Source of the DNA: a phage
Strand: one strand, 5' to 3'
Length of the DNA: 64,000 bases
Sequence record: PZ452612.1
The position numbers and the translations under genes are program-made. Each line of letters begins with the position of its first letter. Within the stretch, counting starts at the first letter, position 1. The notes below the pieces were generated by a model. It was not told the DNA's origin. It did not search any database and was given only the letters and a program-made list of their open reading frames with translations. Shown piece by piece: positions 3,812 to 38,857 of the stretch.

Positions 3812-6523
3812 TCAAAAATCGAACATATCGAACAGAGATGCTTTCTTCTCGTAATCGAGTTTCGCTGCTGATGTGAATCCTTCAAGTGGTTTAATAAATG
3901 TCTTCTCAAGGAGAACAGTGTAGTCCATCCAATGAAGTACGTCATCTTTAATTAAATCTGTGATTTCAGTACCAGAAGGCCATGCGATACATTTATCACC
4001 GAACGGGTTTCCTTCACGTAAAGGCAGAACATATACTTTTTCACCTTCTACAACTTGTGGAGCATCAATATTACCTTTGATAGCTCTGTTATATGTCAGA
4101 ATTCCACGAATATGGAACGGACATTTAGGACCAGGGAATCCACCTACATCATATTTAGCAATGTTATTCGCAGAAGATACCGACGCGATGCTAATATAAT
4201 TCAATTGACGGAATTCTTTTTCAAACTCTTTAAAATATTCTTGTAATGATTCTTCACCTTCTTGAAGCATACGACGAATACATTCTTTAAGAGCTTTCTG
4301 TACTGCTTTAGGGGTCGAAGATTTCTGAGTCTCTAGACCCATGATTTTGAGTTTAGGCTCAGCGTAACGAGTACCTTCCATATCCCACACGTTTAATGCG
4401 TAACGTTTCTTACCAGTCCAGAATCCACCAATACCTTTAGAACCGAGCGGAGGACCAGCGATAGCTTCTCGGTCCATGAACATTAAGTGTTGTTTATTGT
4501 TCATGTATTCACACATTTCACGGAAACCTCTATCAATAGCAGGTTCCATACGTTCACGAGCGAACTTATCTAAGAAGTCTACCCAATGGTTGGTATCACG
4601 GAATTTAGATTCACCAACCTTATCGATAATTTTATCAGCAGATACGTAAATAGAGTCTGTATCACCATAAAGAACGAAAGCTTCACCTTCTGTACCACAA
4701 ACTTCGTTCAGATATTCATTAACTTTACGTTCAATCCACTGTAAAGCCATTTGACCAAATGTTGTGATTGCAGTAGCATTACGCAAATCGTAATAACGGA
4801 ACCAAACGTTGCCAAGTGCACCATAAAGTGAGTTGATAAGCAATTTACGGTTAATTTGTGCAGTCATACCTGCAACTTCAGTACGTTGAGCTCTAAACAA
4901 CATTTCATTAAGAGATTTAGCAGACAACTTTTTAATCTTTTCTTTAATCTCGTCAGTGAAGTCGAAACGATAATCAACATCTAATGGTTCGTCAACAGAA
5001 AGATTAGGATTATGCAACGCCTCTTTAATTATTTCACCATTACGTTGAGCCGCAAGCATATAACCTTTATGTTCTTTACGTTGATTAAAGACCTTAGTGA
5101 TTTCAGTTGGAACTACACCATCACGGTCTTTATAATACATCATGCCATTAGGAGAACAACTGTACACATCTGAAGGACGTTCAGCGATTGCGTTAATATA
5201 ATCATGCAGTGGAGCTACTTTAAACGTTCCTGCTATTGTTTCCGGGCTAATATTCACTTGGCGAATAATACTTGGATACAGAGATGTAAGGTCGAAACTC
5301 ATTACATATTTGTATCGATTTGGAATAGGTTCCTTAACAAAAGCGCCAGGATAAGGTTGAACCGGGTGAGAACGACCTTGTGGAATCACCTTGTTCTGCT
5401 CTTTAAGGCTATTAAAAATAATAGCATCCCATGTTTTAATTGGGCTAAACACAGATTGAATCTGTATCTTAGCATAATAACCCATGTCCAAACTCAAGTT
5501 GATGAACTGACGCTTAGCATCAATTTGCAATACACGATACACGTCGATAATGTTATAAGAAATATATCGTTGGTGATTGCTTTCACGAAGCTTAGAAATA
5601 GGGCCGTCATATTTCAGTTTACCAACGTTCAATTCAAATTCTGAAATGTAATCTAGAGAATACGACGGTTGATTGGTAAAAGAGAATTTTTTGTAAAGGT
5701 CGATATAATCAAGAACAGAGATACCGAACAATGTAATGATTTCACGAGAACCATACATGTTTTCGATAACTTTAACACGAGTTTTACGATGCGGTGATAA
5801 ACGTTTCGCAGTAGATTCGCCAAAAATATTCTTGATTCGGTTATACACATATGGAATATCAAATGACTCAACGTTCCATCCAGTCAAAATGACAGGAGTT
5901 TTCTGTTGCCAGAAGTTGAGATATTCCATCAACAATTCTTTTTCGTTATCGAACGGCATATAAATGATTTTATCGATAATTTCAGATGGAACTTCATCAC
6001 CGCCTTGTTCTTGAAGCTTAGCAGCGATTTCAATAGACCATTCTTCTACATTACCATATGGAGAATTCAATAGATCAAATACGTAGAACCTGTCGTCAAT
6101 TGAGTCATAATGGGTGATAGCATCAATCGGATGTTTTGCTTGTGATGGCTCAGGGAACCCATCCGGAGATGTTACTTCGATGTCGAAGTTAGCCACACGA
6201 ATTTTTGTATGGTCGTATTTGATTTCATAGTTATAAGTGTCAGACAAATACGCCAATTTGAAATCGTCCATGCCAAGTGCTTCAAGTCCGATATCTTCCA
6301 TGCGTTTAATCCATTGGGAGGCATCACGCATATTAGCGAACAACTTACGAGTACACGGCTTACCGTAGATATCGAAATATTTCGTAGCCTGACTTTCCGG
6401 ACAATGAGCAAACAGTGATGGTTTATATTCTACTTCACGAGTACGTTCACGGCCATTAGAATCGATGTAACGTTCAAAAATTGAATCACCAATCTGTTCA
6501 ACCGTTAAGTAAAATTCTTTCAT
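3812..6523 (-). CDS. 43: DNA polymerase gp43 (family B, with 3'-5' exonuclease)
   Basis: 903-aa ORF; motifs FDIEV (exo I), YGDTDS (pol motif C), KLLINSLYGALG; sequence matches my recollection of RB69 gp43. Confidence 0.97.
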   Translation of the reverse strand: MKEFYLTVEQIGDSIFERYIDSNGRERTREVEYKPSLFAHCPESQATKYFDIYGKPCTRKLFANMRDASQWIKRMEDIGLEALGMDDFKLAYLSDTYNYEIKYDHTKIRVANFDIEVTSPDGFPEPSQAKHPIDAITHYDSIDDRFYVFDLLNSPYGNVEEWSIEIAAKLQEQGGDEVPSEIIDKIIYMPFDNEKELLMEYLNFWQQKTPVILTGWNVESFDIPYVYNRIKNIFGESTAKRLSPHRKTRVKVIENMYGSREIITLFGISVLDYIDLYKKFSFTNQPSYSLDYISEFELNVGKLKYDGPISKLRESNHQRYISYNIIDVYRVLQIDAKRQFINLSLDMGYYAKIQIQSVFSPIKTWDAIIFNSLKEQNKVIPQGRSHPVQPYPGAFVKEPIPNRYKYVMSFDLTSLYPSIIRQVNISPETIAGTFKVAPLHDYINAIAERPSDVYSCSPNGMMYYKDRDGVVPTEITKVFNQRKEHKGYMLAAQRNGEIIKEALHNPNLSVDEPLDVDYRFDFTDEIKEKIKKLSAKSLNEMLFRAQRTEVAGMTAQINRKLLINSLYGALGNVWFRYYDLRNATAITTFGQMALQWIERKVNEYLNEVCGTEGEAFVLYGDTDSIYVSADKIIDKVGESKFRDTNHWVDFLDKFARERMEPAIDRGFREMCEYMNNKQHLMFMDREAIAGPPLGSKGIGGFWTGKKRYALNVWDMEGTRYAEPKLKIMGLETQKSSTPKAVQKALKECIRRMLQEGEESLQEYFKEFEKEFRQLNYISIASVSSANNIAKYDVGGFPGPKCPFHIRGILTYNRAIKGNIDAPQVVEGEKVYVLPLREGNPFGDKCIAWPSGTEITDLIKDDVLHWMDYTVLLEKTFIKPLEGFTSAAKLDYEKKASLFDMFDF

Positions 6524-13952: not shown

Positions 13953-14168
13953 TTATCTCATTAAATTAAAATAAAAACGTCCATCCTCTTCAATACAGAA
14001 CTCATACTCAACTGGAGTCCCATTTATCGAAAATGACACGTCATGTGGGTTCAAAGGGTCGATGTCAAAATTAATTTTAAATTCACGACCCAACAGTTTT
14101 ACCAAATAAGGGATTGCTTCGTCAAAAGGTTCTTCTAAGTAGTTAGAGATGTCAATTGTCATCCTCAT
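13953..14168 (-). CDS. Hypothetical small protein downstream of gene 55
   Basis: Track ORF 13953..14246 overlapped gp55 by ~95 nt; trimmed to internal ATG just after the gp55 stop. Confidence 0.4.
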
Positions 14169-14709
14169 ATAAAAAATCCAAACTAGGCGAATCGCTAACA
14201 ACTTCCTTCTTTTCAGCCCCAGGAGCTTTATAAGCGGATTCTTCATAATGCGTCATTTTATCGTAGATGTCTTGAATAAACGTTTCATCTACTAACGCTA
14301 CCATATCATCGTCATGACTGTCGTAGACATTATGAACGAAGTAACTATATTTCTTTGCAACTTCCTTACGTTCTTTTTTGATACGTTGGACAAAAGCATT
14401 AAAACAAGCTCGAGTTATGTATGCATGTGGGTTATTGTACTTAGTTTCGTCGAAATTATGAAGTCCCTTAATAGAGGCTTCAATCCCATCTGCAATCATC
14501 TCCTGCTTCCAAGACTGGGTATATCCTGAAAAGTTGAAACGTTTGGACAGGCCTTCGGCGATAAGCATAATTGCTAAACCGATGGTATCATTCTGACGAA
14601 TAATTTTGTTTGGGTCTTTATTATTTAAGAGCTCCTTTTTCCACTCGATTATAGCGGCGAGAAGCTCTTTATTATTCACATAGTTATTTTTAGGTTTTTG
14701 TTCAGTCAT
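14152..14709 (-). CDS. 55: Late-transcription sigma factor gp55
   Basis: 185 aa from internal ATG ([35 protein letters not shown]...); T4 gp55-like. Confidence 0.95.
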
Positions 14710-14781
14710 AAGTACCTCTTGGCTCAATTCATAGGTCTATTATATCATAATATTTAGAGACCTATCTTAAAGCACGAGATA

Positions 14782-15051
14782 CTATCGGAGCAAACAATAA
14801 GCCTGAAACACTTTTTCCATTAAACGTTTGAACTCATGGATATCGATATAAAGCTCAGTAAGACCTGCATTATAAAGAAAATCTAAAAAGTTCTCATGTG
14901 TTTCGTTATAGTCGCCTTCGTTTAATTGAGATACATGAGTTTCCCAAAAACCAACACCTTTAACGAATGGAAAATACGTGACTTTCATGTATTCGTCAAC
15001 ATAAAATTCGCCCAGCTTTTCTTCAGTTATACTGATTCGAGTTAATTTCAT
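14782..15051 (-). CDS. Hypothetical protein
   Basis: 89-aa ORF in the 55-nrdH small-gene cluster. Confidence 0.5.
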   Translation of the reverse strand: MKLTRISITEEKLGEFYVDEYMKVTYFPFVKGVGFWETHVSQLNEGDYNETHENFLDFLYNAGLTELYIDIHEFKRLMEKVFQAYCLLR

Positions 15052-16613: not shown

Positions 16614-16862
16614 TCAGAGGTTGATTGATACAACGCGTTTGATAAAATTCACTTCACTTACTGAAAGGTCTTTAAGACCGATTGATTCTAAACGCTGAGT
16701 AAGCGTCAACATCGGGATATAATCCCAATGAGTTTTATTTGCTTGATAAGTACGAACGCCATTAGCAATTTCAACATGCAAATCGGAAATGGTAACGAAT
16801 ACCGGACGTTCGTCATTAACTTTAAGGGTTAGAACAACTTTCTTTGAATCTAAACTAATCAT
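16614..16862 (-). CDS. Hypothetical protein
   Basis: 82-aa ORF. Confidence 0.5.
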   Translation of the reverse strand: MISLDSKKVVLTLKVNDERPVFVTISDLHVEIANGVRTYQANKTHWDYIPMLTLTQRLESIGLKDLSVSEVNFIKRVVSINL

Positions 16863-17080
16863 GACTTAATTTCCTTCGCAATTGAACAGAAGATACCACG
16901 GTCACAAAGCATTTCACCAATTTCTGGATATTTGATTGAACGGTACCAAACATCCAGGCTTGAAACTCTGGTTATCTGTACTGCATTACCGTTGACAGAA
17001 TAGTACTGGTCAACCTTAATTTCTTTATCTTCAATTGTCATTTTATTTTCCTCTGTGGTAGATGGTGTTAATCTTAACAT
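16859..17080 (-). CDS. Hypothetical protein
   Basis: 73-aa ORF; GTTTAC...TAAGAT promoter-like element upstream at ~17085-17102. Confidence 0.5.
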   Translation of the reverse strand: MLRLTPSTTEENKMTIEDKEIKVDQYYSVNGNAVQITRVSSLDVWYRSIKYPEIGEMLCDRGIFCSIAKEIKS

Positions 17081-17191
17081 ATCTATCGAGGATGTAAACT
17101 GGTTTTATGAAAATATTTTTGATTTGAGAGGGGCACAAGGAGATAGTGAAGTGAAGATTCCAATGGATTATATTAGAAATGAGATAAAGAA

Positions 17192-18615: not shown

Positions 18616-20429
18616 TGGTGTTTAACCCTATGCATGATTTCTTTATTTTTACCGAGATTAAATCCGCGTTCGTTCGGATTTCCCAAATAACCGCATGTTC
18701 TTCTTATGGTGTTCATCTTTTTAGGATCAGTTTCTCCGCAAACTGAACAAACAAATCCGTTTTCAGTAGGAGTCATTTCATGGGTACTTCCACATGTAAA
18801 ACATTTATCTACTGGCATATTAACACCAAAATAATCTAAATGTTGTGCAGCATAATCCCAGACAGCCTCAAGTCCCTTTAAATTGTTTTTCATATCTGGA
18901 AGTTCAACATAAGAAATGTGACCACCTGTCGCAATGAAATGATATGGCGCTTCACGAGAAATCTTTTCAAACGGAGTAATATTTTCTTCTACTGAAACAT
19001 GGAAACTATTAGTGTACCAGCCTTTATCTGTAACATCTTTTACACTTCCATATTTTTCTGTGTCTAGTTTACAGAAACGATAACAAAGGTTTTCAGCAGG
19101 TGTAGAATACAAGCTAAAAGCAAACCCAGTTCTTTCAGTCCATTGTTTAAGAAGAGCATTCATTTTAGTTAAAATTTCTTGTCCAATATCACGTCCGACA
19201 AGAATATTCAATTCGTGGATACCAATGTATCCTAAAGACACTGAACTTCTACCGTTTTTAAATAACTCAATTATGTCGTCATCAGGTTTAAGACGAACCC
19301 CGAATGCACCTTCTTGGTAAAGAATAGGAGCAACAGTCGCTTTAACTCCTTTTAAGGAACTAATTCTACACATCAAGGCTTCAAAACACAGATCCATACG
19401 TTCATTGAATAATTCAACAAATTTCTGTTCATTGAACTGTGTTCCAATATAAGAATCTAATGCGATACGAGGAAGATTCAGTGTTACAACACCGAGATTA
19501 TTACGTCCATCAAGAATTTCATTACCAGTCGAATCTTTCCATACGCTCAAGAAACTACGGCAACCCATTGGAGAAACTGGAACTGAAGAACCAGTAATAG
19601 CTTTATTATTCTTAGCTGAAATAATATCAGGATACATTCTTTTGCTTGCGCACTCTAGAGCAAGCTGCTTAATATCATAGTTCGGATCGTCTTTATAAAG
19701 ATTAACACCTTCTTCAACGAACATAACAAGCTTAGGGAAAATAGGAGTTATTCCATCACGACCAAGACCTTTAATGCGGTTTTTAAGAATTGCCTTCTGA
19801 ATCATTCGTTCAGTCCAATCGGCCCCCGTACCAAATGTAATTGTTACAAAAGGCGTTTGTCCGTTTGAACTAAAGAGAGTATTTACTTCATATTCATAAG
19901 CTTGGAACGCGTCATAGACATCTTTTTCTGTTTTGGATTGAGCATAATTCAACGCATCAGCGATTTGCCATTTTTCCGCATCTTCAACATGTTTAGCGTA
20001 TGTGCGTTTAACATAAGGAGAAAGAACTTTATCGACATTTGCAAATGTAGTTCCGCCATACTGATGTGAAGCAACTTGTGCAGTAATTTGTGCCATAATT
20101 GCAGTAGCAACACCAATCGATTTAGGCGTTTCAATTTGAGCATTGCCTAATTTAAATCCGTTCTCAAGCATCCCCTTTAAATCGACTAAACAACAATTAG
20201 TAAACGGAAGAGCAGGAGAATAATCAATATCATGCATGTGGATAATTCCACTTTCATGCGCATTCATAATAAAAGACGGGACCATATTTTTGGCAATGTG
20301 CTTAGACACAATACCAGCCATAAGGTCCCGTTGAGTTGGAAAAACACGAGAATCTTTATTAGCATTCTCGTTTAAAAGGTCTTTATTAGTTTTATGAATT
20401 AATCCTTCAATTTCTTTTTCAATTTTCAT
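18612..20429 (-). CDS. nrdD: Anaerobic ribonucleoside-triphosphate reductase NrdD
   Basis: 605-aa uninterrupted ORF; C-terminal Zn-ribbon cysteines (CFTCGS...CSVCG) and glycyl-radical motif RRTCGYLG. Confidence 0.95.
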   Translation of the reverse strand: MKIEKEIEGLIHKTNKDLLNENANKDSRVFPTQRDLMAGIVSKHIAKNMVPSFIMNAHESGIIHMHDIDYSPALPFTNCCLVDLKGMLENGFKLGNAQIETPKSIGVATAIMAQITAQVASHQYGGTTFANVDKVLSPYVKRTYAKHVEDAEKWQIADALNYAQSKTEKDVYDAFQAYEYEVNTLFSSNGQTPFVTITFGTGADWTERMIQKAILKNRIKGLGRDGITPIFPKLVMFVEEGVNLYKDDPNYDIKQLALECASKRMYPDIISAKNNKAITGSSVPVSPMGCRSFLSVWKDSTGNEILDGRNNLGVVTLNLPRIALDSYIGTQFNEQKFVELFNERMDLCFEALMCRISSLKGVKATVAPILYQEGAFGVRLKPDDDIIELFKNGRSSVSLGYIGIHELNILVGRDIGQEILTKMNALLKQWTERTGFAFSLYSTPAENLCYRFCKLDTEKYGSVKDVTDKGWYTNSFHVSVEENITPFEKISREAPYHFIATGGHISYVELPDMKNNLKGLEAVWDYAAQHLDYFGVNMPVDKCFTCGSTHEMTPTENGFVCSVCGETDPKKMNTIRRTCGYLGNPNERGFNLGKNKEIMHRVKHQ

Positions 20430-20899
20430 TTTAAACTCTTTCTAAGCTGCTTTTTGAATGAAGCTATTAATTGTGTTTTAGTATCAGATTCATTATATTC
20501 AAATCCTCTTTGAAGCATCTCAGTCATCATTTCCTCTTTACCTAGTCTTGAGAACTCTTTAGTTTTGTCTGGAACAAAATTAGGATGGATATTATTATCA
20601 GAATAATCTTGTTTCAAATAAGCAAGAAGAGCTTCAAGCCATTCGAGGTAATCAACGTTTTGACCTTTAAGACCAGAACGGTTGAACTTATGCTTCATTT
20701 GACCTTCTGCTGCATTGCACAGGTTACATAGTAAACCACGAACCTTACCAGCTTTTGGCCCGTTTAATTCATGGTCGTGGTCAAGATGGTTACCTTGAAC
20801 ATCAGGGTCTAATTCACGGTGGCAAATAGGACACTTACCATTCTGTGCATCATAAAATTTTTGTTTTTCTTCTTTATATTTTGCGCCTGATAATAACAT
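20426..20899 (-). CDS. 49: Endonuclease VII (Holliday junction resolvase) gp49
   Basis: 157 aa; MLLSGAKYKEEKQKFYDAQNGKCPICHRELD...HLDHDHELNG matches T4 endo VII as recalled. Confidence 0.95.
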   Translation of the reverse strand: MLLSGAKYKEEKQKFYDAQNGKCPICHRELDPDVQGNHLDHDHELNGPKAGKVRGLLCNLCNAAEGQMKHKFNRSGLKGQNVDYLEWLEALLAYLKQDYSDNNIHPNFVPDKTKEFSRLGKEEMMTEMLQRGFEYNESDTKTQLIASFKKQLRKSLK

Positions 20900-20928
20900 G
20901 ATAAACCCTTACCTTAAATAGATAAGGG

Positions 20929-20936
20929 TATTTATA
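20929..20936 (-). promoter_or_regulatory. T4-type late promoter TATAAATA (minus strand) upstream of gene 49
   Basis: Plus-strand tatttata = minus TATAAATA, ~30 nt upstream of the gene 49 ATG. Confidence 0.5.
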
Positions 20937-26775: not shown

Positions 26776-26833
26776 GTTTTACCTCCAGTAGTTGATAGGT
26801 CTATAATAACATAACCATAGACCTTGTAAACAA

Positions 26834-34588: not shown

Positions 34589-35047
34589 CTAGATTTTAAT
34601 CACTGCTTTAGAAGCTTTTCCTGGTAGTCGTTTACTGTTAATAATAGCCATTCTGCATTGAAGAGTCTTCATTTTGAATGCTGGATTTTCGCGACAAACT
34701 GTAAGTCCTAACCAAAGATTTCCATCAGTTATTTCTAAACGGCCTGGGCGATATTCGACACCTTCGACAAAATCTTCATCAACATCTGGACGGGCTGGCA
34801 TTGATAAAAATTCTGCAACTTCTTTAACATGATTTTTTACTTTATGAAATAATTCAAAAACGTAATTCTCATCTATTTCTCTCTGGATGGCACGATCTAA
34901 GAGATGTTGAGAATACTTGATATGAAAGCCTGGTAGTCCAAGAGACTTTGCAGCATCTTTTATACTGGCATTTATTTTGCGGAACTCCGTTTCAAAGATT
35001 CGACGGAGTTTATTGCGGCGGATAAAAACGTCTGAATTGATAGTCAT
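34589..35047 (-). CDS. regB: Endoribonuclease RegB
   Basis: 152 aa; MTINSDVFIRRNKLRR...HIKYSQHLLDRAIQREID...RPGRLEITDGNLWLG matches T4 RegB as recalled. Confidence 0.85.
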   Translation of the reverse strand: MTINSDVFIRRNKLRRIFETEFRKINASIKDAAKSLGLPGFHIKYSQHLLDRAIQREIDENYVFELFHKVKNHVKEVAEFLSMPARPDVDEDFVEGVEYRPGRLEITDGNLWLGLTVCRENPAFKMKTLQCRMAIINSKRLPGKASKAVIKI

Positions 35048-35055
35048 TTTGATTT

Positions 35056-35104
35056 CTCCTCTAGTTGACAGGTCTATAGTAACACAACTAGAGGAGAAGT
35101 AAAC
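35056..35104 (-). promoter_or_regulatory. Early promoter (GTTTAC...TACTAT) inside a 12-bp inverted repeat whose 3' arm contains the regB SD
   Basis: Arms ctcctctagttg (35056-35067) and caactagaggag (35085-35096) are perfect reverse complements; gtaaac at 35099-35104. Confidence 0.5.
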
Positions 35105-35403
35105 TACTCTTTGAAAGGAATTAACTTTTTAACTGCTTTAGATACTTCGTCACGAACCTGGTGGAAGTTCTTGAGCTGTTCAAGGCGTTGTTCGTAATAC
35201 GCAATCTCATCTTCTTCAAGACAATCGTCAGCGTCTTCTTTCAGATATGCCTTGTACTCATTAAAGAGGGCCCATAGGCGGTTCTCAAAGTCATCAAGGC
35301 TTTGAATTTTCTTGTGCTTCGGAACAAGGCCAAAAGGATTGCTTTCAGTTATGCGTCGAGATGCTTCATAATGAGTTCCAAAGCCTGATAGGATTTGAGC
35401 CAT
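35104..35403 (-). CDS. Hypothetical protein
   Basis: Track ORF trimmed to internal ATG ([13 protein letters not shown]...) overlapping the upstream stop. Confidence 0.45.
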
Positions 35404-35648
35404 TAGTATTTTTCCTCTGGTTGAAATACCGCACGACAAGCCCACATACTAGCTTCCTTTAGGCGTTCTTTAGCACAGTTCAATTGGGACAAAGCTGTCA
35501 AAGCTTCAGGAGTATTCGCAGACAACGCTTCTTCCGCCAAGGCATCGAAAATAAGCCCTAATCGAACTTCTGCATCTTTAATAGCGTTCACTTTACCGAT
35601 TTTATCATCGGTATGCGGCTTGTAGCCTTTGATGTCTTCAATCGACAT
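35403..35648 (-). CDS. Hypothetical protein
   Basis: Track ORF 35403..35816 trimmed to internal ATG ([12 protein letters not shown]...) just past the upstream stop. Confidence 0.45.
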
Positions 35649-35862
35649 AAGGAATTTCCTCATCGGTGGCAAGGTCATATTCGACCAATTGGATAGGCTC
35701 ATTAATACCATATCCACGTACAGTGATATCGGTTGTCGGATATTTTCCAGTAATATCACCCATTCTAAATGCTTCAGTGAATGATTGCTCGCCTGAGCAA
35801 CTAAACCAGGCGGCAAAACATTTTAAAACATCTTCAGACCCTTCTATAATCAATTTAGCCAT
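35638..35862 (-). CDS. Hypothetical small acidic protein
   Basis: 74-aa ORF. Confidence 0.45.
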   Translation of the reverse strand: MAKLIIEGSEDVLKCFAAWFSCSGEQSFTEAFRMGDITGKYPTTDITVRGYGINEPIQLVEYDLATDEEIPYVD

Positions 35863-36224
35863 TATAGACTCTCAGTAAAGGTACGAGCGATAACGTCGCG
35901 CTGCTGTTCCGGGGTCAGAGAGTTAAAGCGAACTGCATAACCGGATACACGGATGGTCAGCTGTGGATATTTTTCCGGATGCTTAACTGCATCTTCCAGA
36001 GTTTCGCGACGCAGAACGTTAACGTTCAGATGTTGACCACCTTCAATTTTAACTTTAGGTTGATGTTCAATTTCAATTTCACGGGCATTCAAACCGTAGA
36101 AAATTTCCGGGTCTACAATAGCGTCTTCTTTAAAAGTCTTAGAGACGATAATCCGGGCTTGAGTACCGTCTTCAAAATAAATAGTGCCTTTATGTGCACC
36201 TTCAAGAATTTGATATGCTTTCAT
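35862..36224 (-). CDS. Autonomous glycyl radical cofactor GrcA/YfiD-like protein
   Basis: 120 aa; C-terminal ~64 aa ([61 protein letters not shown]) carries the RVSGY glycyl-radical motif and matches E. coli GrcA as recalled; this part is visibly GC-rich. Confidence 0.8.
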
Positions 36225-36230
36225 ATAACC

Positions 36231-36539
36231 TCAATTAGAAAATAAATTTATCCAAGTTTTTTCTTTAATCAAAAATGGGTCAGAACTAAACGCCATTAAA
36301 CTTTGAGTGATTAATCCCTTAAATGGCCCATCAATAAATTCCATTTTGAAATGCGGAATACTAGTCATCAACCGTGCGTTAGGAGCAGTACAAAGAACCT
36401 GCTGCCCTGCGAACGGACCTTTAGTCAAACGGTATCGTTTAGGTTTAAAATGGTAAATCTCGTAATTTTCTACAAGAGCCCTTTTATTGCATACTGGGCT
36501 GTTATAACAATATTCAAAAACTTCAATAGTGGTCATCAT
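36231..36539 (-). CDS. Hypothetical protein
   Basis: 102-aa ORF. Confidence 0.45.
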   Translation of the reverse strand: MMTTIEVFEYCYNSPVCNKRALVENYEIYHFKPKRYRLTKGPFAGQQVLCTAPNARLMTSIPHFKMEFIDGPFKGLITQSLMAFSSDPFLIKEKTWINLFSN

Positions 36540-37075
36540 TGCATTCCAATCACAAAAAATTGAGGACGAGCATTACCGCCGATGCAATATTTGCTTTTGC
36601 AGCAGTACTGTACTGTTTTAATATGGACATTGTAAATCTTATCCATATCAGGAGCTTTAATAGGCTCGTCAATTATATACAGAATACGAGAAAGCGTTAA
36701 TCCACGGAATTTAGAACCTTCATTGCCAATAAAACTACGAACAGAATCAGTAAATAAACGGAATCGAATATCATCGCTAGAATAACGAGAAAATTCTTTT
36801 TCAATGTTACCAGCAGAAATTTTAGCATAAGCTGAAGTATTAGAAAGAACAATAACTGTTCCGCCATCATACAGCCAATTAGCAGCAAAGTTAGTCACAG
36901 CAATTGATTTACCGGATTGTCTGCCACCGTCTAAACGAAGTGTACAGTACTGCTTGAGTACGTCTTCAAACGGTGGGATATAACCGTTCTTACAAATTTC
37001 TTCTACTCTAGCATCAGAATGGTGTGTAAAAGCATTCATCAGGGATAGATAAGGTCCAGTTAAAAATGTTCTCAT
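36536..37075 (-). CDS. Hypothetical protein
   Basis: 179-aa ORF. Confidence 0.5.
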   Translation of the reverse strand: MRTFLTGPYLSLMNAFTHHSDARVEEICKNGYIPPFEDVLKQYCTLRLDGGRQSGKSIAVTNFAANWLYDGGTVIVLSNTSAYAKISAGNIEKEFSRYSSDDIRFRLFTDSVRSFIGNEGSKFRGLTLSRILYIIDEPIKAPDMDKIYNVHIKTVQYCCKSKYCIGGNARPQFFVIGMQ

Positions 37076-37248
37076 TTAGTTTCTCTTTTATGTTGGGCCA
37101 TTCCGTGGCACATGTTAGGTCCTTCGACTCGCTATGTAAACCCATTACCGCACTTGGGCTCGACATTATTACAGGTTGGAAAAGGTACATCACTCAGAGG
37201 ACTCGACGTTCATGAGGAGAGGTTGCGTTTCCCTTTATTAGGCAAGAA

Positions 37249-37578
37249 TTATACTCTAGGCTTTTGAGCTTGTTTGGTATTGGATTCCCATGCGGCTTTG
37301 GTAATTTTGTTAGTGGCATAACCAAAGGCATTAGATAGAACACCTTTAGAGTTGAATACATCCAATCCAATAAGTACACCGGCTGTGTTAAATTTAGGAG
37401 CAAAGTACGCATTAGTTTTAGAAAGAGCTTTTTTCAATTCAGGGTCTTGAACCAAACCATCAAAAACGCCTTTACTATTTACTTTATATGTTACTTTGGG
37501 ATTTTTACCTTCTTCGATAGCAGCTTTCTGTTCCGCAGATAATGTAACTTCAGTGATAAACTCCTGATATGTTTTCAT
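37249..37578 (-). CDS. Internal-protein-like (capsid-targeted) protein, ipII position
   Basis: 109 aa; N-terminal MKTYQEFITE matches the T4 internal-protein capsid-targeting leader; Lys/Ala-rich. Confidence 0.6.
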   Translation of the reverse strand: MKTYQEFITEVTLSAEQKAAIEEGKNPKVTYKVNSKGVFDGLVQDPELKKALSKTNAYFAPKFNTAGVLIGLDVFNSKGVLSNAFGYATNKITKAAWESNTKQAQKPRV

Positions 37579-37586
37579 TTTGTTCC

Positions 37587-38000
37587 TTAGTAAATTGATT
37601 TACCATAGTATTTGTACCAAGTCGGACGTTGAGCAATTTTTTCATCTAAGCGTGCTTGACTTATCGCAATGGACGCTTCGGACGGGACGTAATTATTACG
37701 AAATTCTACAGGAATGTCGGAAATATCCTGGACTGTCGTGTCCTTGATTTTGAAACCACGTTTCAAGCATTCGGCGATTAGCTCGATTTGACGTAAACGT
37801 AAAAATTCGAGTTTGTCGTAAAAGAATGTTACGTGACCTGTGCCTAAGATAAATGTTGGAGAGATTTTAAAATCCTTTACACGTTTACCGTTTTGAACAT
37901 GTTTACGGACTGCACCAAATACGCGTGGTAATTCACGATACTCAGCCATAAGATGTTGGTCGGACAGTTCAGAAACAAGTGTTAAATTGATACGAGTCAT
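37587..38000 (-). CDS. denV: Endonuclease V (pyrimidine-dimer DNA glycosylase) DenV
   Basis: 137 aa from internal ATG; [35 protein letters not shown] matches T4 DenV as recalled. Confidence 0.9.
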
Positions 38001-38005
38001 AATTT

Positions 38006-38057
38006 CCTCCAAGTAGTTGATGAATGTATAGTATCAAAACTCTTGGAGGAAGTAAAC
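38006..38057 (-). promoter_or_regulatory. Early promoter GTTTAC with inverted repeat CCTCCAAG/CTTGGAGG; 3' arm contains the denV SD
   Basis: Arms at 38006-38013 and 38042-38049 are perfect reverse complements; gtaaac at 38052-38057; the -10 lies in the loop. Confidence 0.45.
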
Positions 38058-38058
38058 A

Positions 38059-38340
38059 CTATTTTTCTGAAGCGCCTGAAATATATTTTTCAAGACGTTG
38101 TTTCATCAGCGAGCCGTTCTTAGCGATTTCTTCCGGTTTATCGCACATACGCAACAAGGCTTCAAGCTTAACGATATCACTGGTGCGCTCAAATTTGCGA
38201 GTATCTATCTTACTGGCAAGTTCAGAAATACGTGCTAATAGACTTTCAGCTTCAACCAAAGCTGCACCTAGCTTAGTTGCAAATGTGTCAGTAGCTTCGT
38301 TAAGAATAGATTCTGATAAAAATTCACTATATGTTTTCAT
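38059..38340 (-). CDS. Internal-protein-like protein, ipIII position
   Basis: 93 aa from internal ATG; [10 protein letters not shown] leader; ATGA overlap with the e stop. Confidence 0.55.
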
Positions 38341-38825
38341 ATATACGCTTTCCAAGTTCCTGTTTTAAATGTTGAGATTACGCGTTTCGCTCGATTAGGT
38401 GTCTGACGGTACCATTTAGATTGGGCTAGATTTACTGCCGCTTCATCCCAACGTTTCTGTTGAAGCATACGAAGAGAATTAGTAAAACCAGCGACGCCTG
38501 CTACACCCATTTGGAAGACCATATTGACCAATGCACATCGACGAACCGCATCTAAAGAATCATATACCGGTTTAAGTTTAGCATTACCCAAGATTCCGCG
38601 AACGGCTTTATCAACGTCTTCATTAAATAGCTTTTCAGCCTCATCAAGGGTAATTGTACCGTTGCATTTACGTCCGATCATTCTGTCAAGTTCAGCTTTA
38701 GCTACGGCTAAAGACGGGTTCTTTGTTACTAAATGGCCTATGCCAATCGTCCAAAAGCCTTCAGTGTCTTTGTATAAAGTCAGTCTAAGACCTTCGTCAT
38801 TACGAAGCATTTCAAATATATTCAT
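38337..38825 (-). CDS. e: Endolysin (T4 lysozyme, gene e)
   Basis: 162 aa from internal ATG; [32 protein letters not shown] with catalytic E/D/T context as in T4 lysozyme. Confidence 0.95.
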
Positions 38826-38828
38826 AAT

Positions 38829-38857
38829 ACCTCCCACGTTTATAGGAGGTATTTATT
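38829..38857 (-). promoter_or_regulatory. SD-sequestering hairpin upstream of e (ACCTCC-10 nt-GGAGGT) with adjacent late-promoter-like AATAAATA
   Basis: 3' arm GGAGGT is the SD; mirrors the known T4 e arrangement. The AATAAATA (minus 38857-38850) deviates from TATAAATA at position 1. Confidence 0.45.

Follow-up and report, generated by a model that had tools for sequence, protein, structure and literature searches.

Promoter-Embedded Hairpins as Probable Read-Through-Specific Translational Masks of regB, denV, and e in a Mosigvirus

Three genes encoded in a 64,000-nt stretch of phage DNA (sequence record PZ452612.1; the whole stretch is referred to here as the window), regB, denV, and the lysozyme gene e, are each preceded by a hairpin whose 5′ arm lies in or overlaps the promoter and whose 3′ arm contains the Shine–Dalgarno sequence (SD). 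Based on their anatomy, predicted folding, and conservation among T4-like phages, we consider these hairpins probable translational masks that are specific to read-through RNA and built into the promoters. RNA entering from an upstream promoter would carry both arms, and the resulting hairpin of 10–14 bp would bury the SD so that the 30S subunit could not bind; RNA initiated at the gene's own promoter would lack the 5′ arm, because this arm is part of the promoter DNA, and by starting 3′ of it would leave the ribosome site open. For e, this is the already known T4 lysozyme mechanism, found here in a Mosigvirus. For regB and denV, the mask would be of a known type and new in its combination with early promoters.

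At e, the mask would keep lysozyme from being made before late transcription begins. The logic would be reversed at regB and denV, as protein would be made only during the 2–3 min in which early promoters fire, and later polycistronic RNA would yield none. To express the internal-head-protein (IP) genes that flank denV, late RNA initiated at e would have to cross denV, with no terminator-like site in its way, and a mask at denV would let transcription pass while translation of DenV stays off. Early-only synthesis suits the local gene order as well as RegB, the production of which is said to be tightly controlled. If true, this would give a simple account of low late levels of RegB, a potentially harmful RNase, and of DenV, despite late transcripts for the nearby head-protein genes crossing both of them. 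A preliminary description of the sequence had proposed that translation is coupled to promoter choice at all three genes; this is established for e in T4, and at regB and denV the computational evidence (folding, covariation, and predicted transcription start sites) argues for it.

Anatomy and Predicted Folding of the Three Leaders

The elements of the three leaders are listed in table 1. The inverted repeat of regB is perfect over 14 bp with a loop of 17 nt, and is the longest perfect one in the window; that of denV is perfect over 10 bp with a loop of 28 nt. The preliminary description had placed perfect repeats of 8–12 bp around the −10 region of both genes, with GGAGG in the 3′ arm. Such repeats are present on the minus strand and denV agrees with the description in both respects, whereas at regB the repeat exceeds the stated length and the SD reads GGAG. 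The 5′ arm of regB occupies the 17-nt spacer and is followed by tgt before TACTAT; after the −10, the leader continues with agacctgt, the 3′ arm CAACTAGAGGAGAA, atcaaa, and the ATG. The denV leader is composed of TTCCTCCAAG, agttttga, TACTAT, acattcatcaacta, CTTGGAGGAA, att, and the ATG. The e stem comprises 9 perfect base pairs, or 11–12 bp counting G·U pairs, around the loop taaacg, and the last four bases of the late-promoter-like element AATAAATA form the start of the 5′ arm AATACCTCCTA. The same logic with a late-promoter-like element, as in T4 lysozyme, had been described for e, and this overlap together with the GGAGG in the 3′ arm bears it out.

T4-type early promoters have GTTTAC at −36 to −31, a TGn-extended −10, and a T at −7, and late promoters have TATAAATA at −13 to −6, position −13 being either A or T in RB69-type phages (PMC1524935). 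By these spacing rules, transcription is predicted to start at G35069 for regB and at A38021 for denV, both 3′ of the 5′ arm, and at T38844/A38843 for e, the last two bases of the arm; judged by promoter consensus, all three promoters would thus start transcripts within or 3′ of the 5′ arm. The preliminary description had made its proposal depend on where transcripts begin relative to this arm, and the starts predicted for regB and denV fall on its 3′ side. A literature search found no genome-wide paper on T4 transcription start sites. The promoters of regB and denV were absent from the output of a sigma-70 consensus scan of the window, owing to the low score of GTTTAC against TTGACA, and early promoters were found with the T4-type pattern instead. 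No terminator was detected in a scan of the sequence between the upstream genes and the regB, denV, and e leaders. The three stems are followed by A-rich sequence and not by a U-tract, none of them was called terminator-like, and they were rejected as intrinsic (Rho-independent) terminators for lack of the U-tract; as far as can be judged from sequence, they do not qualify as terminators or attenuators.

Compared with dinucleotide shuffles, the hairpins reach z-scores of −3.4 (regB), −4.8 (denV), and −4.2 (e), and none of 200 shuffles folded as well, whereas leaders truncated at the predicted start have z-scores of about 0. The minimum free energy of the read-through hairpins is −16 to −22 kcal/mol. 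In read-through RNA of 100–500 nt the probability of the SD being unpaired, P(unpaired), is about 0.000, compared with 0.2–0.34 in RNA from the predicted starts, and opening the region from −18 to +10 costs 16.4–19.7 kcal/mol in the former and 4.4–5.8 kcal/mol in the latter. This folding of read-through and promoter-initiated 5′ untranslated regions, which the preliminary description had suggested, thus predicts the SD to be masked in one and not in the other, and for all three genes a stable helix sequestering the SD is predicted in upstream-initiated RNA. In a ranking of 106 crude gene calls of the window by SD masking, each in a read-through context of 100 nt, denV, e, and regB take ranks 1–3; the median P(unpaired) of the window is 0.34.

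Table 1. Features of the regB, denV, and e region (coordinates of the window)
Feature	Coordinates	Strand	Remarks
regB coding sequence	34589..35047	−	152 aa; annotated regB in phage ATK47; ATG 35047
regB hairpin 3′ arm CAACTAGAGGAGAA	35054..35067	−	Contains SD GGAG 35056–35059
regB predicted transcription start G35069	35068..35070	−	7th nt after the −10; predicted from consensus spacing
regB extended −10 TGt TACTAT	35076..35084	−	In hairpin loop; TACTAT 35081–35076
regB hairpin 5′ arm TTCTCCTCTAGTTG	35085..35098	−	Inside −35/−10 spacer; covaries with 3′ arm across lineages
regB early promoter −35 GTTTAC	35099..35104	−	T4-type early −35; stop TAG 35104–35106 of upstream open reading frame overlaps
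Open reading frame with IP-type N-terminus	37252–37578	−	Next after denV
denV coding sequence	37587..38000	−	137 aa plus stop; ATG at 38000
denV hairpin 3′ arm CTTGGAGGAA	38004..38013	−	Contains SD GGAGG 38006–38010
denV predicted transcription start A38021	38020..38022	−	Predicted from consensus spacing
denV extended −10 TGa TACTAT	38028..38036	−	In loop; TACTAT 38033–38028
denV hairpin 5′ arm TTCCTCCAAG	38042..38051	−	Inside 18-nt spacer; covariation in relatives
denV early promoter −35 GTTTAC	38052..38057	−	Upstream open reading frame stop TAG 38059–38061
Internal-head-protein gene	38062–38340	−	phrog_3499; between e and denV
e (lysozyme) coding sequence	38337..38825	−	ATG 38825
e hairpin 3′ arm TGGGAGGTATT	38826..38836	−	SD GGAGG 38830–38834; directly abuts ATG 38825
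e hairpin 5′ arm AATACCTCCTA	38843..38853	−	Predicted late start T38844/A38843 at its 3′ end
Late-promoter-like element AATAAATA	38850..38857	−	Upstream of e; T4 consensus TATAAATA at −13..−6

Covariation of the Arms among T4-Like Phages

In T4, hairpins occur at these three positions as well, with other stem sequences. To follow the stems across lineages, loci of relatives were taken from IMG/VR, giving 28 distinct T-even-type regB leaders and 28 denV leaders. The −35 GTTTAC of regB is kept in the 28 regB relatives, and about ten different stems occur there, in each of which the SD region pairs with the bases immediately 3′ of GTTTAC. Apart from TTCTCCTCTAGTTG/CAACTAGAGGAGAA (5′/3′ arm), these include TTTTCCTCTTGACTG/CAGTTAAGAGGAGAA with two G·U pairs, TTTCTCCTCTTTATG/CATAAAGAGGAGAAA, ATCTCCTTTTAGT/ACTAAAAGGAGAT, ATCTCCTGTAG/CTACAGGAGAT, TCTCCTGTAAG/CTTACAGGAGA, ATCCTCATTTG/CAAATGAGGAT, in which the SD itself is altered, CCTCCTTT/AAAGGAGG, and CTCCTCTTG/CAAGAGGAG. 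The denV relatives have about eight different stems that pair promoter DNA with the SD, in two geometries. Several have the 5′ arm in the spacer (including CTCCGTTTG/CAAACGGAG and TCTCCTGTG/CACAGGAGA); in many others (e.g., ATGTCCTCCTA/TAGGAGGACAT, GATGTCTTCC/GGAGGACATC, and AGTGTTCTC/GAGAACACT) it overlaps the −10 hexamer, continues past it to end at −3 to +2, and is therefore still absent from the promoter's own transcript. In none of the relatives does the 5′ arm reach past about +2. Pairing is thus kept by compensatory change, and this listing of distinct stems does not depend on an alignment guided by a covariance model (CM).

As a control, the promoter segment of each regB and denV lineage was paired with its own initiation region and with those of other lineages. 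Self-pairing was stronger than cross-lineage pairing for regB (−16.0 vs. −10.5 kcal/mol) and for denV (−13.8 vs. −8.4 kcal/mol), and among the strong-stem lineages no cross-pair equaled the self-pair. In the CM-guided alignment 85.2% of the cells are paired, compared with 71.7% in shuffles, 13 of the 14 pairs are changed on both sides, and the covariation score is 0.341 versus 0.128 (0 of 500 shuffles as high), with slid registers scoring 0.02–0.05; restricted to the 40 distinct sense-strand regB and denV cassettes, 83% are paired compared with 68.9%. It should be noted that these shuffle statistics are inflated by the relatedness of the sequences and by an alignment that was fitted to the structure, which lessens their weight in favor of a mask. 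When the leaders were aligned with MAFFT alone, variable stem and loop lengths shifted the 3′ arms against each other, and this alignment was not used for pair counts. The SD is masked (P(unpaired) ≤ 0.01–0.02) in 23 of the 28 regB leaders and in 24 of the 28 T-even-type denV leaders.

For e, the evidence for conservation consists of listed stems and literature; the control of exchanged arms was discarded there, as the T4-type loop TATAAATA was mis-segmented as the promoter. At every T4-like e locus examined, the sequence (A/T)ATAAATA adjoins the 5′ arm, and the stems of relatives vary with compensation, CCCC/GGGG for example replacing CCTCC/GGAGG. In L110-type phages, the stem is displaced toward the loop.

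The 5′ arm follows the SD variants of the relatives, with GGAGA matched by TCTCC, GAGGA by TCCTC, GGAGG by CCTCC, and, at e, GGGGG by CCCC. These variants also bear on a different explanation, by which the stem would guard the GGAG of the leader from RegB cleavage on long transcripts and any effect on translation would be a by-product. RegB cleavage occurs at GGAG in early SDs, RNA secondary structure inhibits the enzyme and protects GGAG from it, and the SD of regB itself is a RegB target in T4 and RB69. However, the stem is kept in relatives with the SD GAGGA or GGGGG, which contain no GGAG, the T4 denV SD is RegB-resistant through its 3′ context with no need of structure, and this design has a proven purpose in translation at e and gene 49. 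We regard such a shield as very unlikely.

Distant relatives that have an intrinsic terminator just upstream of the promoter (L184–187 for regB; L042, L045, L049, and L050 for denV) show no comparable mask; for this contrast, terminators were assigned by visual reading, in addition to P(unpaired), as the 90-nt window of the automated detector cut them off. The contrast fits an alternative in which such genes either terminate upstream transcription or mask the SD, although it is confounded by phylogenetic distance. Upstream of the denV homologs of L042, L045, L049, and L050, jumbo phages of 345–380 kb, we observed composite terminator–promoter elements, in which a G+C-rich hairpin with the −35 TTGAC in its 5′ arm (GGGTTGACTTCGGTCAGCCC) precedes TTTTT, with TATAAT coming next. 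These composites appear to be another way to isolate a gene from upstream transcription.

Sister Cassettes and Competing Explanations

The evidence that weighs against SD masking as the role of the regB and denV stems comes in part from other early promoters. In a census of the window, 14 sites were strongly early-promoter-like, every one of them on the minus strand, and six have helices between the spacer and downstream sequence at z ≤ −3. Half of these helices cover an SD (denV, regB, and a 60-aa open reading frame at 16862–17041), and the other half (41411, 41083, and 31002) merely bracket the −10. Stems at 26831 and 15964 and those of T4 ipII and ipIII likewise bracket the −10 without the SD, and the hairpins of these sister cassettes and of ipII and ipIII are as strong as those at regB and denV, which suggests a role that does not need the SD. 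The bracketing stems would form on read-through RNA only and cannot mask an SD; another function, such as attenuation, processing or stability, or recombination, likely exists, and it may apply at regB and denV too. SD masking may not be the sole or primary role of such stems. In the five bracketing cassettes of the window (41411, 41083, 31002, 26831, and 15964, all on the minus strand), hairpins of 9–13 bp run from a 5′ arm within the spacer to a 3′ arm directly after the −10, and two of the five precede IP-like genes beginning MKTYKEF.

The preliminary description had overlooked that the regB and denV elements belong, by their layout, to a repeated family of early-promoter stem-loops resembling the promoter-early stem-loop (PeSL) cassettes and the IP-locus elements. 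Both have the composition of a PeSL-like cassette, with AT-rich upstream sequence, an early promoter, a stem-loop at or near the −10, an SD, and the ATG. A CM built from the regB and denV cassettes (R1) also matches 26831, 31451, 41766, 17099, and 28307 as well as T4 ipII and ipIII. The regB cassette of the window (35054–35104) is near-identical to the denV cassette of T4 (L002; 5364–5414), with the sequence TACTATAGACCT[G/A]TCAACTA[G/C]AGGAGA, and also to the regB cassette of L164-type phages, whereas the regB cassette of T4 is divergent; the CM scores are 75 bits for regB of the window, 77 for T4 denV, and 39 for T4 regB. This suggests cassette exchange or gene conversion between loci.

It would follow from such a family that the stems at regB and denV are generic PeSL-like or IP-locus cassettes that serve attenuation or termination, processing or stability of the upstream mRNA 3′ end, or recombination homology, and that inclusion of the SD is secondary. 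The helices without SD cover, the matches of R1, and the exchange suggested by the likeness of the window regB and T4 denV cassettes all agree with this, and terminator activity was measured for one RB49 stem (PMC2839356; PMC4122927). The A-rich sequence after the regB, denV, and e stems does not, and T4 early RNA is known to run through the e stem. Furthermore, the 5′ arm tracks the lineage-specific SD variants and in the denV relatives changes its position in the promoter and still pairs with the SD, and incidental pairing is for this reason hard to accept. We consider the generic cassette a rather unlikely explanation.

A point against masking also arises from the upstream open reading frames, which stop only 6–7 nt ahead of the 5′ arms (TAG 35104–35106, TAG 38059–38061, and, for e, TAA 38860–38862). 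Terminating ribosomes may transiently open the outer pairs, and the stem could then be a gate for translational coupling, in which translation of regB, denV, and e on polycistronic RNA needs a ribosome that terminates at the upstream frame and melts the outer pairs over GGAG. A terminating ribosome covers roughly 10 nt past the stop codon, and in the regB relatives the stop is always 0–7 nt ahead of the −35. However, only 4–5 of the 10–14 pairs would melt, and tight spacing of stop and promoter is expected anyway in a compact genome. T4 e has the same layout and is repressed about 100-fold on read-through RNA, so upstream termination does not relieve the block there. A coupling gate is, in our estimate, unlikely.

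Sequence alone does not prove a structure in sense RNA as opposed to one in DNA or antisense RNA. Perfect palindromes fold equally on both strands, and a strand test comparing G·U with A·C gave few interior counts (∼9–11 G·U vs. 4 A·C), its extension being confounded by the TTTAC and A-rich flanks. Perfect inverted repeats of at least 9 bp are only mildly enriched in the whole window (19 vs. 12.4 ± 3.5 in shuffles). These counts would agree with chance palindromes, or with DNA-level elements such as a protein operator or a cruciform that have no role in RNA. Nevertheless, three inverted repeats lying exactly on SDs, with z-scores from −3.4 to −4.8, are not expected by chance, and the stems of T4 regB, T4 e, and e of the window hold G·U pairs, which are mismatches on the other strand. 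The stem sequences vary by locus and lineage while pairing persists, which excludes a common operator; a common protein operator was rejected also because the stems differ between the three loci. Chance or a purely DNA-level role is extremely improbable.

Two further points against masking remain to be mentioned. The regB lineages L157–160, L171, and L178/179 have an inner hairpin or a weak mask (P(unpaired) 0.04–0.39), and the accessible literature yielded no 5′-end mapping or translation assay on T4 read-through RNA for regB and denV. With all of these points considered, read-through-specific masking remains the reading we favor. A wider version of it, which we put forward tentatively and hold to be possible rather than probable, is that early-promoter cassettes are expression modules with translational insulation in two interchangeable geometries, the 5′ arm lying either in the −35/−10 spacer or in the discriminator between −10 and +1, and that some PeSL stems are insulators and not terminators. 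The gene carried by such a module would be translated from its own promoter only, in the first minutes, which would help to explain how cassettes can be shuffled between contexts without deregulating this gene.

Outside the three main leaders, a fourth cassette of this kind, with an early promoter (17041–17099, minus strand), precedes the 60-aa open reading frame (16862–17041; phrog_2283). Its spacer sequence ATCCTC... pairs with GAGGA, the SD of this frame, with a z-score of −3.1 relative to shuffled spacers, and P(unpaired) of the SD in read-through RNA is 0.001. The leader of the gene 49 homolog (endonuclease VII, phrog_423; 20429–20899), at 20905–20936 on the minus strand, contains TATAAATA and then the hairpin ACCCTTATC.../...GGTAAGGGT, and P(unpaired) of its SD is 0.001 in read-through RNA compared with 0.59 in the short leader. 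In the gene 55 leader (late sigma factor, 14155–14709; leader 14712–14783, minus strand) hairpins are nested: the SD lies within the outer helix AGTATCTC/GAGGTACT, with P(unpaired) at 0.001 compared with 0.40, and the inner helix GATAGGTCT/AGACCTAT brackets TATAAT, with a MotA-box-like TGCTTTA just upstream.

Genomic Context and Comparison with Known Systems

The 4.9 kb around the three leaders are 100% identical to the Escherichia coli O157 typing phages 3 and 6, and their identity to other Mosigvirus (RB69-like) phages is about 98%. The encoded RegB has 77% identity to T4-type RegB. Every gene of the region is on the minus strand, in the transcription order nudE, e, an internal-head-protein gene, denV, an IP-type open reading frame, a gap of about 170 nt, the homologs of vs.8 to vs.3, and regB. 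This differs from T4, where the order is e, ipIII, ipII, denV; in the window, denV lies between two IP-type genes. The start of the internal-head-protein gene overlaps the e stop codon through ATGA (38337–38340), implying that the head protein may be translationally coupled to lysozyme. The stretch of about 170 nt between the IP-like open reading frame and the vs.8 homolog (37076–37248) is without an open reading frame and holds a weak promoter-like match, TTTACA-17-TAACAT; no Rfam family matches it, and shuffled versions fold at least as well (z +2.1). A search of the whole window with the curated covariance models of Rfam found no family at its gathering score.

The leader of e is orthologous to that of T4. 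In both, the late-promoter box abuts the 5′ arm, and the SD GGAGG together with the sequence up to the AUG forms the 3′ arm of a stem of 11–12 bp; the stems differ by a few bases, partly compensated. The upstream box is AATAAATA in the window and TATAAATA in T4, and the second late promoter that T4 has in the loop is degenerate in the window (TATAAACG). McPheeters et al. (1986) are said to have described the T4 gene e leader hairpin with embedded late promoters. On early read-through RNA of T4, the hairpin blocks lysozyme translation about 100-fold, RNA initiated at the embedded late promoter is free of this block, and a review extends the scheme to related phages (Uzan and Miller 2010, PMC3014915). 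In phage ATK47 (L001), the GenBank record marks the e hairpin (5835–5871, corresponding to ∼38815–38851 of the window) as a terminator predicted by ARNold. As T4 early RNA extends into e, this label is doubtful and probably a mis-annotation, and stems of this kind should not be labeled terminators.

Hairpins that sequester a ribosome binding site and are relieved by an internal late or middle promoter are documented for T4 49, soc, I-TevI/II/III, and segB and for Aeh1 mobE (PMC3014915; PMC2988022). Gene 49 is thus a documented T4 case, and its leader in the window has the same design as that of e. The logic proposed here for regB and denV is the same as in these systems, with a hairpin that forms on upstream-initiated RNA only and a promoter internal to it. 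The documented cases, however, use late or middle promoters and delay expression, whereas regB and denV use early promoters of the sigma-70 type, have the 5′ arm in the −35/−10 spacer, and are predicted to be translated in the earliest minutes. A review of homing-endonuclease genes states that there are "no occurrences of early promoters" among those genes' own promoters.

For the early-promoter stems themselves, the closest comparison is with sequences seen in T4. Valerie et al. (1986, NAR) reportedly noted stem-loops before T4 ipIII, ipII, denV, and orf61.9 (= regB) on sequencing 58.3–65.5 kb, as a description of potential structures with no tested mechanism. The T4 sequence shows all of these stems; those of denV and regB are orthologous to the ones in the window, whereas those of ipII and ipIII leave the SD uncovered.

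PeSL cassettes are known from RB49/phi1, PST/T4, and nt-1/KVP40 (Arbiol et al. 2010, PMC2839356; Comeau et al. 2014, PMC4122927). They consist of AT-rich upstream sequence, an early promoter (in T4/PST, TTTACW-N17-TAYWAT), a stem-loop that either lies between −35 and −10 or covers the −10, an SD, and the ATG, and exchange between loci has been proposed for them as well as for the T-even IP-locus elements (Repoila et al. 1994) (PMC2839356; PMC4122927). The regB and denV elements share this layout of a repeated intergenic cassette, and may share the interlocus exchange. The PeSL papers treat the stem as a terminator or attenuator and as a recombination substrate, and the words "translation" and "ribosome" do not occur in one of them (PMC2839356); in the accessible reviews and PeSL papers, SD masking is not proposed for early-promoter cassettes. 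At regB and denV, in contrast, the SD itself is in the 3′ arm and no U-tract follows. Masking at these two genes would suggest a function for promoter-associated stem-loops that have so far been described mainly as terminators or recombination sites, and would extend the use of SD-masking hairpins from late and middle promoters to early ones, with the opposite temporal effect.

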